Below, one piece after another: positions 1,009 to 44,349 of a stretch of DNA of 45,219 nucleotides (position 1 is its first letter; each line of letters begins with the position of its first letter). The DNA comes from a virus (lineage: Duplodnaviria; Heunggongvirae; Uroviricota; Caudoviricetes), in the IMG/VR virus record IMGVR_UViG_2740892444_000003, positions 1 to 45,219 of that record. One strand, given 5' to 3'. The notes under the pieces were generated by a model, which saw only the letters and a program-made list of their open reading frames with translations, searched no databases and had not been told where the DNA came from. Position numbers and translations under genes: made by a program.

Positions 1009-1083
1009 GTCCTCTTAGTTAAATGGATATAACGAGCCCCTCCTAAGGGCTAATTGCAGGTTCGATTCCTGCAGGGGACACCA
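1009..1083 (+). tRNA. argW: tRNA-Arg (anticodon CCU), attachment site of the prophage
   Basis: 75-nt sequence GTCCTCTTAGTTAAATGGATATAACGAGCCCCTCCTAAGGGCTAATTGCAGGTTCGATTCCTGCAGGGGACACCA read directly; cloverleaf-compatible with anticodon loop CTCCTAA (CCU), T-arm GGTTCGATTCC and CCA end. Confidence 0.9.
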
Positions 1084-1244
1084 TTTATCAGTTCGCTCCC
1101 ATCCGTACCAGTCCGCAAAATTCCCTGAATATCAAGCCTTCCGTAGATTCACAGTTCGTCATGGTTCGCGTCAGATCGTTGACAGCCGCACTCCATGACG
1201 GGTAAAAAGTGGATAAAATAATTTTACCCACCGGATTTTTACCC

Positions 1245-2402
1245 ATGCTCACCGTTAAGCAGATTGAAGCAGCAAAGCCGAAAGAAAAACCATACCGCCT
1301 ACTCGATGGTAATGGACTGTACCTTTATGTCCCTGTATCCGGGAAAAAGGTATGGCAGCTTCGCTACAAGATTGACGGTAAGGAGAAAGTCCTAACCGTA
1401 GGAAAATATCCGCTAATGACTTTGCAGGAGGCAAGGGATAAGGCATGGACTGCGAGGAAAGACATCTCGGTTGGCATCGATCCGGTAAAAGCGAAAAAGG
1501 CTTCGTCTAACAACAATTCCTTTAGCGCCATTTACAAGGAATGGTACGAGCACAAGAAGCAAGTCTGGTCAGTAGGCTATGCAAATGAACTTGCCAAAAT
1601 GTTTGATGACGACATTTTACCCATCATCGGCGGCCTTGAGATTCAGGATATTGAGCCGATGCAACTGCTGGAAGTAATCCGCAGATTCGAAGATCGCGGT
1701 GCAATGGAGCGAGCCAACAAAGCCCGCAGAAGATGTGGCGAGGTTTTCCGTTACGCTATTGTCACCGGAAGGGCTAAATATAACCCAGCACCTGACCTTG
1801 CTGACGCCATGAAGGGATACCGCAAGAAGAACTTCCCGTTTCTTCCTGCAGACCAGATCCCGGCATTCAACAAAGCACTGGCAACATTTTCAGGAAGTAT
1901 CGTATCGCTCATTGCCACCAAGGTTTTGCGCTATACAGCCCTAAGAACGAAAGAGCTTCGTTCCATGCAATGGAAGAACGTCGATTTTGAAAACAGGATT
2001 ATCACCATCGACGCCAATGTGATGAAGGGACGCAAAATTCATGTGGTTCCTATGTCAGACCAGGTGGTTGAACTTCTCACTACGCTAAGCTCAATCACCA
2101 AACCAGTATCAGAGTTTGTTTTTGCCGGGCGCAACGATAAGAAGAAGCCAATCTGCGAGAATGCGGTATTGCTTGTGATCAAACAAATCGGCTATGAGGG
2201 TCTGGAAAGCGGTCACGGATTCAGGCATGAATTCAGCACGATTATGAACGAGCACGAATGGCCTGCTGATGCTATTGAAGTGCAACTGGCACATGCCAAC
2301 GGCGGATCTGTGCGCGGTATTTACAACCATGCTCAGTATCTAGATAAGCGCAGAGAAATGATGCAGTGGTGGGCGGACTGGATTGATGAAAAGGTGGAGT
2401 GA
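1245..2402 (+). CDS. intS: Tyrosine-recombinase integrase (P4-type)
   Basis: ORF immediately downstream of the tRNA; track ORF begins at a GTG at 1209, likely ATG start at 1245 (MLTVKQIEAAKP...); integrase-like C-terminal region; matches K-12 IntS from memory. Confidence 0.85.
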   Translation: MLTVKQIEAAKPKEKPYRLLDGNGLYLYVPVSGKKVWQLRYKIDGKEKVLTVGKYPLMTLQEARDKAWTARKDISVGIDPVKAKKASSNNNSFSAIYKEWYEHKKQVWSVGYANELAKMFDDDILPIIGGLEIQDIEPMQLLEVIRRFEDRGAMERANKARRRCGEVFRYAIVTGRAKYNPAPDLADAMKGYRKKNFPFLPADQIPAFNKALATFSGSIVSLIATKVLRYTALRTKELRSMQWKNVDFENRIITIDANVMKGRKIHVVPMSDQVVELLTTLSSITKPVSEFVFAGRNDKKKPICENAVLLVIKQIGYEGLESGHGFRHEFSTIMNEHEWPADAIEVQLAHANGGSVRGIYNHAQYLDKRREMMQWWADWIDEKVE

Positions 2403-29062: not shown

Positions 29063-29369
29063 CTTCTACTCCGGCTTTTTTAGCAGCGAAGCGTTTGATA
29101 AGCGAACCAATCGAGTCAGTACCGATGTAGCCGATGAACACGCTCGTTATATAAGCGAGATTGCTACTTAGTCCGGCGAAGCCGAGAAGGTCACGAATGA
29201 ACCAGGCGATAATGGCGCACATCGTTGCGTCGATTACTGTTTTTGTAAACGCACCACCATTATATCTGCCGCGAAGGTACGCCATTGCAAACGCAAGGAT
29301 TGCCCCGATGCCTTGTTCCTTTGCCGCGAGAATGGCGGCTAACAGGTCATTTTTTTCTGGCATCTTCAT
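29046..29369 (-). CDS. S: Holin (lambda S-type, dual-start MKM motif)
   Basis: 107-aa protein beginning MKMPEK with three TM segments; near-identical to lambda S as recalled. Confidence 0.9.
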
Positions 29370-29828
29370 GTCTTACCCCCAATAAGGGGATTTGCTCTAT
29401 TTAATTAGGAATATGGTCGGTTACTGATAGAACAAATCCAGGCTACTGTGTTTAGTAATCAGATTTGTTCGTGACCGATATGCACGGGCAAAACGGCAGG
29501 AGGTTGTTAGCGCAACCTCTTGCCACCCGCTTTCACGAAGGTCATGTGTAGAAGGCCGCAGCGTAACTATCACTGATGAATTCAGGATAGCCAGTGGCTA
29601 CGGCTCAGTTTGGGTTGTGGCGGCCGGAATCGAACCGGCTTCCATCGGTGCGCTGCCGATTGCAGTACGCGCGGCGGTCAGCTACATGACTAGTATTTCA
29701 CTGTCGCCTATCTGCTAGCTCGCCATTGAGCTTCACCACAACGATAAGAGCACTGCGCGGCACCTTTCACCAATTCCGCGAGGTCTGCGGGTTCAATGCT
29801 CTTACCTGTTGTGCAAACAAAAAAAGCC

Positions 29829-43197: not shown

Positions 43198-43394
43198 CAG
43201 CCTTTTCTTATTTGTAATAAGCAGTACTTAGTAGTGCTTATAAAACAGAATAAAAAACATATGACTTTGGCGATTACCCAGTAAAGATATTCGAAATAAA
43301 TGTAAATATCGGCAATGAATAACAATCCTCGCACTCGCGGGGATTTCTTTTATCTGAACTCGCTACGGCGAGTTTTGTTTTATGGAGATGATAA

Positions 43395-43562
43395 ATGCAC
43401 TTCCGAGTCACAGGTGAATGGAATGGAGAACCATTCAACAGAGTTATCGAAGCAGAGGACATCAACGACTGCTATGACCACTGGATGATATGGGCGCAGA
43501 TAGCACATGCAGACGTAACCAATATTCGAATTGAAGAACTGAAAGAACACCAAGCCGCCTGA
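43395..43562 (+). CDS. Small hypothetical protein (55 aa)
   Basis: Hand-translated MHFRVTGEWNGEPFNRVIEAEDINDCYDHWMIWAQIAHADVTNIRIEELKEHQAA; followed by a terminator. Confidence 0.35.
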   Translation: MHFRVTGEWNGEPFNRVIEAEDINDCYDHWMIWAQIAHADVTNIRIEELKEHQAA

Positions 43563-43577
43563 TGGCGGTTTTTTATT
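43553..43577 (+). terminator. Intrinsic terminator
   Basis: GCCGCC-TGAT-GGCGG hairpin followed by TTTTTTATT. Confidence 0.55.
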
Positions 43578-43619
43578 GCCTGATTTGCAGGTTCGATTCC
43601 CTATTCGGAGATAGCACTC

Positions 43620-43820
43620 ATGCAACACGAACTACAACCTGATTCACTGGTTGATTTGAAATTCATCATGGCTGATACTGGCTTCGGTAAAACCTTCATT
43701 TATGACCGGATTAAGTCCGGCGACCTGCCAAAAGCCAAAGTTATCCACGGGCGAGCAAGATGGTTATATCGTGACCATTGTGAATTCAAAAATAAGCTCT
43801 TAAGCCGCGCCAATGGGTAA
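43620..43820 (+). CDS. torI: Excisionase / recombination directionality factor (TorI/AlpA family)
   Basis: 66-aa protein (MQHELQPDSLVDLKFIMADTGFGKTFIYDRIKSGDLPKAKV...) recognised as KplE1 TorI; lies ~75 nt inside attR. Confidence 0.75.
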   Translation: MQHELQPDSLVDLKFIMADTGFGKTFIYDRIKSGDLPKAKVIHGRARWLYRDHCEFKNKLLSRANG

Positions 43821-44349
43821 AATAGCGGGTAAAATATTTCTCACATCTAAAAAATACCATTCCAATCAATCCCCTGCTGCCTCAAGTAGATGTCTGCAGG
43901 GGACACCAGATACCCTTCAAACGAAATCTACCTTCACCCCGTAAAAGATGGGTTTGGCAGCACACTTGCCTTATATCTACTCATTTTTACTGCAACAGGT
44001 TGAAATCTCAGCACTGTCAGAAAGCGCTGATGACTAAACAGCCCTGGGCCGGGCGATGTAACCATCACACAGAATCCTGATAGCGAAATATGGCGTGACT
44101 CGATACTTCACTCCGCAATGCATTCCTTGATGAATTCGCAGGACCGTGATACACGGGACAGGTCACTGAATGACGACAATGTCCTGGAAATCAGCGAACC
44201 GCGCATCTGAAGTACATTTGAGCGACTGTACCAGAACATGAATGAGGCGTTTGGATTAGGCGATTATTAGCAGGGCTAAGCATTTTACTATTATTATTTT
44301 CCGGTTGAGGGATATAGAGCTATCGACAACAACCGGAAAAAGTTTACGT

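Follow-up and report, generated by a model that had tools for sequence, protein, structure and literature searches.

A conserved argW T-arm-like box in the torI leader of a KplE1/HK620/Sf6-type prophage

Why should a second piece of a prophage's target tRNA gene stand ahead of the excisionase gene, on the far side of that gene from the attachment (att) core? We examined this question in IMG/VR record IMGVR_UViG_2740892444_000003 (Caudoviricetes; positions 1 to 45,219, the whole 45,219-nucleotide stretch being called the window here), in which a prophage occupies argW and an exact copy of part of the argW T-arm precedes torI, the excisionase gene. A sequence-only reading of the same DNA had proposed that an older, longer att homology was split by insertion of the excisionase module, or that tandem integrations had left the extra piece behind. 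The comparisons reported here indicate instead that this piece, which we call the box, is a conserved element of the torI leader, whose core appears to be kept by purifying selection across relatives of many genera.

There are exactly two copies of the 16-mer TTGCAGGTTCGATTCC in the window, both on the plus strand (chance expectation 0.04). Copy 1, at 1054–1069, is the argW T-arm segment itself; GTTCGATTCC, the right-hand part of this copy, would form the B half-site of attB in a partition of our own that is set out below. Copy 2, found by the repeat search and marked by its conservation, is the T-arm piece at 43585–43600; the sequence-only reading was right that an exact match lies near attR but had it at ~43582–43597, 3 nt too far to the left. 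The acceptor piece was correctly located at 43894–43908 and is an exact copy of argW 1069–1083. In argW the two pieces abut, as had been said of the intact tRNA, with the C at 1069 in common, whereas at the right end of the prophage 293 bp (43601–43893) containing torI (43620–43820) lie between them, close to the ~300 bp described. The T-arm piece starts about 10 nt past the terminator of the upstream module and ends 7 nt ahead of the torI Shine–Dalgarno sequence, and its conserved core, GTTCGATTCCC (43591–43601), starts 29 nt ahead of the torI ATG. A search for further copies of the box in the window returned only argW and a near-match at 29625–29635, about the number expected by chance.

Relatives of TorI were gathered from species-representative genomes and viral contigs. 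The T-arm piece is present in K-12 KplE1, HK620, Sf6 and CUS-3, and in all 80 E. coli-type viral contigs retrieved with TorI, among which variants are each confined to a single contig. The comparison with the KplE1 attR of K-12 had been proposed from the sequence, with absence of the match from related attR sequences taken as the mark of a chance resemblance; the piece is there in K-12 as in the other relatives. Outside the E. coli type, the box lies 26–35 nt before the excisionase ATG in phages of Enterobacter, Serratia, Citrobacter, Pantoea, Edwardsiella and other hosts. Overall, 97 of the 116 distinct leaders compared, from many genera and three excisionase subfamilies, have a core reading GTTCGATTYCC ~29 nt ahead of the excisionase ATG: 61 leaders have GTTCGATTCCC exactly, 36 have it with one to three mismatches and 19 have no box. 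The change seen at position 4 of the box is C to A (6 of the 116).

The degree of conservation was measured as mean pairwise identity over 28 leaders from Enterobacter, Serratia, Citrobacter, Pantoea, Edwardsiella and other hosts, anchored on the box. The 13 box columns (CAGGTTCGATTYC) have an identity of 0.89, compared with 0.35 for the 17 columns to the left, 0.43 for the 6 columns to the right and 0.60 for third-codon positions of the excisionase gene. Conservation within the leader is confined to the box and the Shine–Dalgarno sequence, with 5–8 nt of scrambled sequence between the two. Because the box is kept at this level between flanks that are not, it does not behave as a neutral scar and appears to be under selection, although it can be lost. 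Its position also follows the excisionase start codon and not the att core, which counts against a remnant of a split att site.

The box travels with the excisionase–attP–integrase module, whatever gene stands upstream. At least three different upstream modules abut the T-arm piece among the 80 E. coli-type contigs. In the window, the last gene of the neighbouring module is a 55-amino-acid open reading frame (ORF; 43395–43562, plus strand), a homologue of the lambda ORF just upstream of xis with ~96% DNA identity to lambda 29091–29300; it is followed by an intrinsic terminator hairpin and T run (43552–43575, plus strand), a mosaic boundary common to lambda and other upstream modules. The lambda homology takes in this small ORF and the terminator and ends at the first TTGC, 6 nt before the T-arm piece; beyond that point lambda reads TTGCGTGTAATTGCGGAGACTTTGCGATG and has no box. 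The piece thus lies on the torI side of the mosaic junction.

On that side, the box persists while the excisionase changes. It accompanies a second excisionase subfamily, the Salmonella g341c type, which is ~50% identical to TorI and whose arm-type sites read GCGGGCATA in place of GGGTAAAA. It is present as well in Erwinia phage phiEt88, in which the core is the same, the integrase is 74% identical, with most differences from IntS in the arm-binding domain, and the excisionase is only 36–39% identical. The phiEt88 attachment region (locus L244, 2010–2270) has arm-type sites reading GCGGGCATA, and the repeats at the positions of TorI sites I1–I5 are CGATGTAAC, GCGTTAC and GCGTAAA, with no GTTCG. 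Judged from these sequences, phiEt88 gives the appearance of a change in excisionase specificity that took place inside a single integrase family.

Both the number of boxes and their presence vary. Two tandem boxes 16 nt apart (ACAGGTTCGATTCCCGTCAGGTTCGATTCCC) are found in loci L129, L130 and L132 (~1956–2000) and in Erwinia phage Midgardsormr38 (L246, ~1755–1800), and locus L126 has a comparable pair, TGTTCGATTCCCGCGTTCGATTACC. Conversely, a segment of 25–28 nt with the box is absent from loci L015, L323, L330, L331 and L335 when these are compared with L012 and L303. In such box-less leaders, which occur with both excisionase subfamilies, the terminator-proximal TTGCCTG runs straight into the ribosome-binding site.

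The box likely descends from the argW T-arm. Its invariant core corresponds to G53, the 7-nt T-loop and C61–C62 of the tRNA, and the likeness to argW extends to TTCCAGGTTCGATTCC in many lineages and to the full TTGCAGGTTCGATTCC in the E. coli type (14–16 of 16 positions), more than selection seems to hold. That a functional word of 10–13 nt should be the T-arm of the module's own target tRNA by coincidence is very unlikely, and the relation to argW that had been read from the window stands, since the likeness in many lineages is longer than the conserved core. An ancient tRNA origin is possible, perhaps from an older, longer attP. Intermediates of the kind expected from a split or an aberrant excision were sought in 5,426 complete E. 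coli genomes, where a query joining the tRNA 5' half, the T-arm and torI gave no match covering at least 80% of its length. The junction of upstream ORF, T-arm, core and P' arm gave 16 matches with at least 80% coverage in the same genomes, none of them contiguous: each consists of two pieces spanning ~556 bp and is an ordinary attP with torI between.

What, then, might select for the box? We give roughly an even chance to its being a tRNA-derived DNA site that is bound by one or other recombination protein of the module and tunes excisionase expression. Its travelling with the module and not with the neighbours suggests a DNA site for a module-encoded protein, and its place between the terminator and the torI ribosome-binding site speaks for a role in controlling how much excisionase is made. 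The box in the torI leader would be bound by the integrase or the excisionase of the module itself, and on comparative grounds we rank the integrase slightly above the excisionase. Wherever the box occurs, the constants are the att core, the tRNA and the C-terminal two-thirds of the integrase; this constancy is why the core-binding and catalytic part of the integrase would be the favoured binder. The excisionase is the alternative because published excisionase sites have GTTCG cores.

The resemblance of the box to a core-type site can be made explicit. In attP, GATGTC and GACACC are arranged with inverted symmetry around TGCAGGG, from which we propose that attB consists of a half-site B, GTTCGATTCC, a 7-bp overlap O, TGCAGGG, and a half-site B', GACACCA. 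The box equals the proposed left (B) half-site base for base, and its tRNA identity stops at the proposed B/O boundary, which gives the two pieces the appearance of a single tRNA 3' end that has been cut. The variable position 4 of the box has a parallel in the integrase C half-sites (TTCGATGTA, TTAGATGTA, GTAGATGTC), where it is the position that varies most, and it never varies in excisionase sites; C to A is the commonest difference among the C half-sites of related attP sites.

Several observations weigh against a recombinase-binding DNA site or against the integrase as its ligand. On its own, a half-site offers a tyrosine integrase a weak target, and the strongest conservation is in the distal part, GTTCGATT, not in the 6 bp beside the would-be overlap. 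GAGATA, which could be the partner half-site, is 7 nt away in most lineages (5, 8 or 14 nt in others), matches the consensus at four of six positions and is also the Shine–Dalgarno region. Direct tandem boxes suit an excisionase-type array better than a core-type site, and the case against the excisionase leans largely on phiEt88, whose leader could be a module exchange. The partition into B, overlap and B' is a reading of sequence symmetry and not a published mapping. Some lineages do without the box, namely the Klebsiella phage Chronis type, Dryocola and several g341c-type phages, and part of the high likeness of whole leaders from different excisionase subfamilies could be due to recent recombination and not to selection.

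A more specific form of the proposal, which we regard as doubtful, makes the box an integrase operator: integrase on its P-arm sites would reach back to the box and loop out or block torI, keeping the excisionase off in the lysogen and during lysogenization, in a mutual-repression switch with TorI. If the integrase does bind the box, this would, with the repression of the intS promoter already known for TorI, amount to a mutual-repression switch that sets the direction in which recombination runs. More broadly, the excisionase leaders of modules on other tRNA genes might each bear the T-loop half-site of the tRNA gene that they target. The search for such modules reached TorI homologues only at 59% identity or more, which were taken as members of the same argW-type family, and a tblastn search of phages with the integrase returned distant integrases. 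In Acinetobacter phage R3177, the one clear xis–attP–int case examined, there is no tRNA-like att sequence.

Other readings of the box as a working signal were weighed against a site of this kind. If TorI is the binder, the box would be a sixth TorI-type site, at which TorI recognizes GTTCG beside the torI ribosome-binding region and so regulates its own production by feedback; we consider this unlikely. TorI is both excisionase and regulator of the intS promoter, and the box has the TorI core pentamer, at the torI ribosome-binding region: GTTCG at 43591–43595 fits the pattern G[T/A][T/C]CG of the published cores (PMC2951348). At 43603–43611 (plus strand), ATTCG, a near-match to the pentamer 12 nt after the first, runs into the GGAG Shine–Dalgarno sequence of torI, and other lineages have GTTCG or GTCCG at this overlapping position (L011, L019, L020, L127 and L131). 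The tandem boxes of some phages, the variant CAGTTCGATTTCC (L127, L128), which resembles the I-site consensus CAGTTCG, and the GTTC(G/T) sites likewise used by the g341c-type excisionase all fit this reading. The box nevertheless differs from the mapped sites in its flanks and in its pattern of variation: GTTCG is followed by C or T in 15 of 15 P' sites examined and by a conserved A in the box; the box varies at position 4 and never at 2 and 3, whereas I sites vary at 2–3 and never at 4; and the conserved block of 11–14 nt is longer than the 8-nt I site. Moreover, phiEt88 keeps the box though its excisionase sites (CGATGTAAC or GCGTTAC) and recognition helix have changed. The annotation in the HK620 record suggests another signal, an integration promoter, PI, to which the piece would supply the second TTGC half-site and the spacer of a cII site, reading through attP into int; the record marks a 'phage integration' promoter equivalent to window 43575–43613 and a cII site at 43576–43588. 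The place is that of lambda PI at the xis start, right after the same terminator and the shared TTGC sequence. We find this reading very improbable. Lambda cII sites have the form TTGC-N6-TTGC, and the repeat here, TTGCCTGATTTGC, is TTGC-N5-TTGC. Nor is the repeat conserved: its first TTGC (43576–43579) is TTAC, once TTTC, in 19 of the 80 E. coli-type contigs (L036, L044, L049 and others), the second reads TTCC, TGAC or otherwise in other genera, and the conserved part is the would-be spacer, not the hexamers. A sigma-70 scan of 43200–44100 finds no −35/−10-like hexamer pair, and intS has its own promoter, mapped downstream of attP in the P' arm (PMC2951348). With no sigma-70-like site in that interval and a cII repeat that is not conserved, we largely rejected a promoter. 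A T-loop-like sequence could instead act in the torI mRNA leader, as a tRNA mimic or as a mask of the ribosome-binding site, which its position 5–8 nt upstream of the Shine–Dalgarno sequence in most lineages would allow; UUCC of the box can pair with GGAG, and a few lineages can form a T-arm-like hairpin, such as GACAGG-TTCGATTC-CCTGTC in Edwardsiella. This has very little probability in our estimate, since RNAalifold finds no consensus structure in 19 diverse leaders, the leader in the window folds no better than its shuffles (z = −1.3), Rfam gives no significant match in 43300–44100 and ARAGORN finds only argW. The base equivalent to C56 is the one that changes most often, whereas C56 is universally conserved in tRNAs. 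A structured RNA was rejected for want of a consensus fold, excess stability or an Rfam or tRNA match.

The remaining readings deny the box a function of its own. The sequence-only reading amounts to a neutral scar: an older attP would have carried ~30 nt from the 3' end of argW and been divided when the excisionase gene and the P arm entered it, or tandem integrations would have left the pieces apart. The two pieces have the order and orientation that this calls for and abut exactly in the tRNA; the likeness of 14–16 nt in many lineages goes beyond the conserved core, the attP C half-site still reads TTCGAT, T-loop-like, in many relatives, and alleles with and without the 25–28-nt box segment exist. 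A scar should decay like its flanks, however, and not be retained across excisionases only 36–50% identical, and its tandem duplication would not be expected. An ancestral attP without a P arm beside the core would be unworkable for an arm-dependent integrase, no intermediate junction occurs in the 5,426 E. coli genomes, and the window has no sign of tandem prophages. We hold the scar to be improbable, and neither the split by module insertion nor the tandem-integration history is supported, given the conservation of the box above the neutral level. Uniformity of the leader could also come from exchange rather than function, if the leader is the linker at which lambdoid phages swap modules by homologous recombination. 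The Sf6 record labels the stretch bsq2, 'boundary sequence', homology to lambda and to other upstream modules extends only as far as the terminator and the TTGCCTG that immediately precede the box, and near-identical leaders precede excisionase genes only ~50% identical. We think this quite improbable: the sequence shared with lambda, TTTTTTATTGCCTG, is upstream of the box, which lambda itself does not have, and recent exchange of the whole block does not predict that only the box and the Shine–Dalgarno sequence are kept, with a scrambled spacer between. A chance match can practically be dismissed. GGTTCGAWTCC is a very common word, carried as it is by every tRNA gene, but the 16-mer is expected 0.04 times per window, and the same box in the same place in ~100 independent leaders refutes chance.

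The setting in which the box occurs is that of a well-known module. The window holds a full-length HK620/Sf6/KplE1-type prophage in argW, 42,825 bp from core to core, and its recombination module belongs to the KplE1/HK620/Sf6 family by every defining feature tested. The integration target, argW, is intact at attL; it is the only tRNA gene that ARAGORN finds in the window (tRNA-Arg(CCT), 1009–1083, plus strand), and its 3' sequence reads ...CTAATTGCAGGTTCGATTCCTGCAGGGGACACCA. The att core CTGCAGGGGACACCA occurs exactly twice, at 1069–1083 (attL) and 43894–43908 (attR), both on the plus strand, against a chance expectation of 0.07; the acceptor piece is thus the attR copy of the known 15/16-nt core. 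The published 16-nt core of KplE1 is CTGCAGGGGACACCAT (PMC2951348). The base after the first 15 is T at attL (1084) and G at attR (43909), so the identity block is 15 nt in this strain, compared with a published 16 nt in K-12 and 17 nt in Kapi1. In prophage-free strains the chromosomal flank from 43894 onward is joined directly to tRNA-Arg.

In this family attP lies between the excisionase and integrase genes (HK620 and Sf6 record annotation; PMC8787464), and the integrated prophage has intS at attL and torI at attR for that reason. The intS gene (1245–2402), next to attL and read away from argW, encodes a 385-amino-acid tyrosine integrase with the Pfam domains Arm-DNA-bind_3, Phage_int_M and Phage_integrase and 97.9% identity to HK620 Int. 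At the other end, the 66-amino-acid ORF at 43620–43820 (plus strand) matches PDB entry 1Z4H, 'Tor inhibition protein', over residues 1–66 of 66 (E = 6.6e-43), and RefSeq names its near-identical matches torI; its product is the excisionase, or recombination directionality factor (RDF). The segment 43515–43908 is 98–99% identical to the HK620 and Sf6 attP regions, and 43570–43908 matches the right end of the K-12 cryptic prophage KplE1.

The sequence-only reading had also suggested that the separated pieces could affect how Int and TorI are arranged on attR; published mapping gives this no support. A 135-bp attR suffices for excision in vitro (PMC3509656). Its phage-side part, mapped on the window from the methods of that paper, is 43797–43908 (plus strand); it starts at the primer attR-IHF2, CTCTTAAGCCGCGCCAATGG (43797–43816), and includes the C half-site AGTAGATGT and the core. 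The fragment starts ~200 bp downstream of the T-arm piece, which is thus not part of the attR that recombines in vitro, and the published TorI sites, five in number with cores GTTCG, GTCCG and GATCG, are on attL and not on attR (PMC2951348). The P-arm integrase arm-type sites are two copies of GGGTAAAATA at 43815–43836 (plus strand), a repeat annotated in attP of HK620. The distance of 293 bp from the T-arm piece to the core is found also in the free-phage attP regions of HK620 and Sf6. Immediately left of the core, the attP half-site reads (A)TTCGATGTA in most relatives (L011–L020 and others), by which attP itself keeps a second, diverged T-loop-like stretch; the same half-site has drifted to AGTAGATGTC in the E. 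coli type (window 43884–43893).

At attL, the five TorI sites map to the P' arm at 1090–1180 (plus strand) when site cores and spacings are taken from PMC2951348: I1, AGTTCGCT, at 1090–1097; I2, AGTCCGCA, at 1110–1117; I3, AGTTCGTC, at 1153–1160; I4, GGTTCGCG, at 1163–1170; and I5, AGATCGTT, at 1173–1180. The layout matches the published one, with two blocks, 12-nt and 2-nt spacers and the same cores. The intS promoter region with its arm-type sites (GGGTAAAA / TTTTACCC), together with intS, occupies 1180–2402 (plus strand; Pfam, identity to HK620 and repeats), and TAAA-containing arm-type repeats were located in the window. The intS promoter has been mapped within the P' arm, and TorI represses it through sites I4 and I5 (PMC2951348).

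Two further features of attL were noticed. The argW T-loop sequence GGTTCGAT (1059–1066) lies 31, 51, 94, 104 and 114 nt from the starts of I1–I5, close to whole helical turns, and argW DNA itself might serve as one more TorI-type site on attL. Because the attL substrate in the published work begins inside this sequence, the argW T-loop could not have been footprinted. In addition, an exact 11-nt direct repeat, CCGCACTCCAT, is found at 974–984, within the spacer of the argW promoter region, and at 1186–1196, within that of the intS promoter in the P' arm; on extension, CCGCACTCCATTAGCGGGTATAC aligns with CCGCACTCC-ATGACGGGTAAAA. A non-E. coli phage locus (L199) fits the E. coli argW promoter region still better (CCGCACTCTTTAGCGGGTAAAA), and the argW promoter regions of other hosts look different from that of E. 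coli. The repeat would reflect either common ancestry of the E. coli argW promoter and the intS promoter, PintS, or a GGGTA arm-type-like site in the bacterial arm.

The module of KplE1 (CPS-53), HK620, Sf6 and CUS-3 has in common with the window the integrase, TorI, the argW 3'-end core, the five TorI sites, the arm-type sites and the gene order, whereas KplE1 in K-12 is a 10.2-kb remnant and the prophage here has its full length of ~42.8 kb. The papers on the KplE1 module define attR and the TorI and IntS sites without the box (PMC2951348, PMC3509656), and no description of it as a conserved, tRNA-identical element of the excisionase leader was found in the searchable literature, which left out several key module papers. 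Small winged-helix excisionases bind short repeated sites that overlap the expression signals of recombination genes. P4 Vis represses the promoter from which it is made, and P2 Cox and 186 Apl are likewise both excisionases and regulators.

Set beside the half-sites C, C', B and B' of the lambda paradigm, the box is a proposed B half-site that ends at the proposed boundary of B and the overlap; unlike those half-sites it stands alone, 293 bp from the core, with no identical overlap and a partner that matches at four of six positions at best. To our knowledge, there is no precedent for a core-type site acting as a regulatory site in an excisionase leader. Blocks of tRNA-derived identity at att sites have reportedly been treated by Reiter et al. 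in 1989 and, as sublocation classes, by Williams in 2002. Such blocks are phage copies of the tRNA 3' part in the same orientation, which is true of the box too. They adjoin the crossover and rebuild the tRNA, whereas the box is separated from the core by a gene and has no part in rebuilding argW; it is not needed for this because the 15-nt core alone restores the tRNA at attL.

The 16-bp direct repeat that the box makes with argW is easily mistaken for an att core, and automated prophage-boundary callers can err in the same way. The CUS-3 record (GenBank CP000711; L001 1706–1721, L005 1–16) starts and ends at this repeat, labelled there as attL core and attR core. Where the right end of a genome matches CUS-3 with 100% identity, as in NU14 (NZ_CP019777, 2648416–2648561), the box is followed directly by torI, from which it follows that the CUS-3 record omits torI and the true attR core. 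The box region has been entered as PI with the cII site TTGCCTGATTTGC in the HK620 record and as a boundary sequence in the Sf6 record. The KplE1/HK620/Sf6 module is a main model for direction control in prophages with int and xis at opposite ends, and upstream transcription and termination are where control of torI has so far been placed. In this system the conserved box by the torI ribosome-binding region, with its identity to the tRNA, is a candidate control point and a modest new detail of a well-studied module.

Two minor observations concern other T-arm-like or TorI-site-like words in the window. On the minus strand at 29612–29650, around the near-match to the box, a sequence resembling the 3' end of a tRNA or tmRNA, GCCGGTTCGATTCCGGCCGCCACAACCCA, has a perfect T-arm; ARAGORN makes no call there, and the Rfam tmRNA match (10 bits, E = 0.059) falls short of the threshold. 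A decayed phage tRNA is one possibility, an att-like remnant another. Within torI, the minus strand of codons 3–5 (CACGAACT, window 43626–43633) reads AGTTCGTG, a word that resembles a TorI site in inverted orientation and lies ~35 nt from the box; as this word is coding, its conservation tells little.

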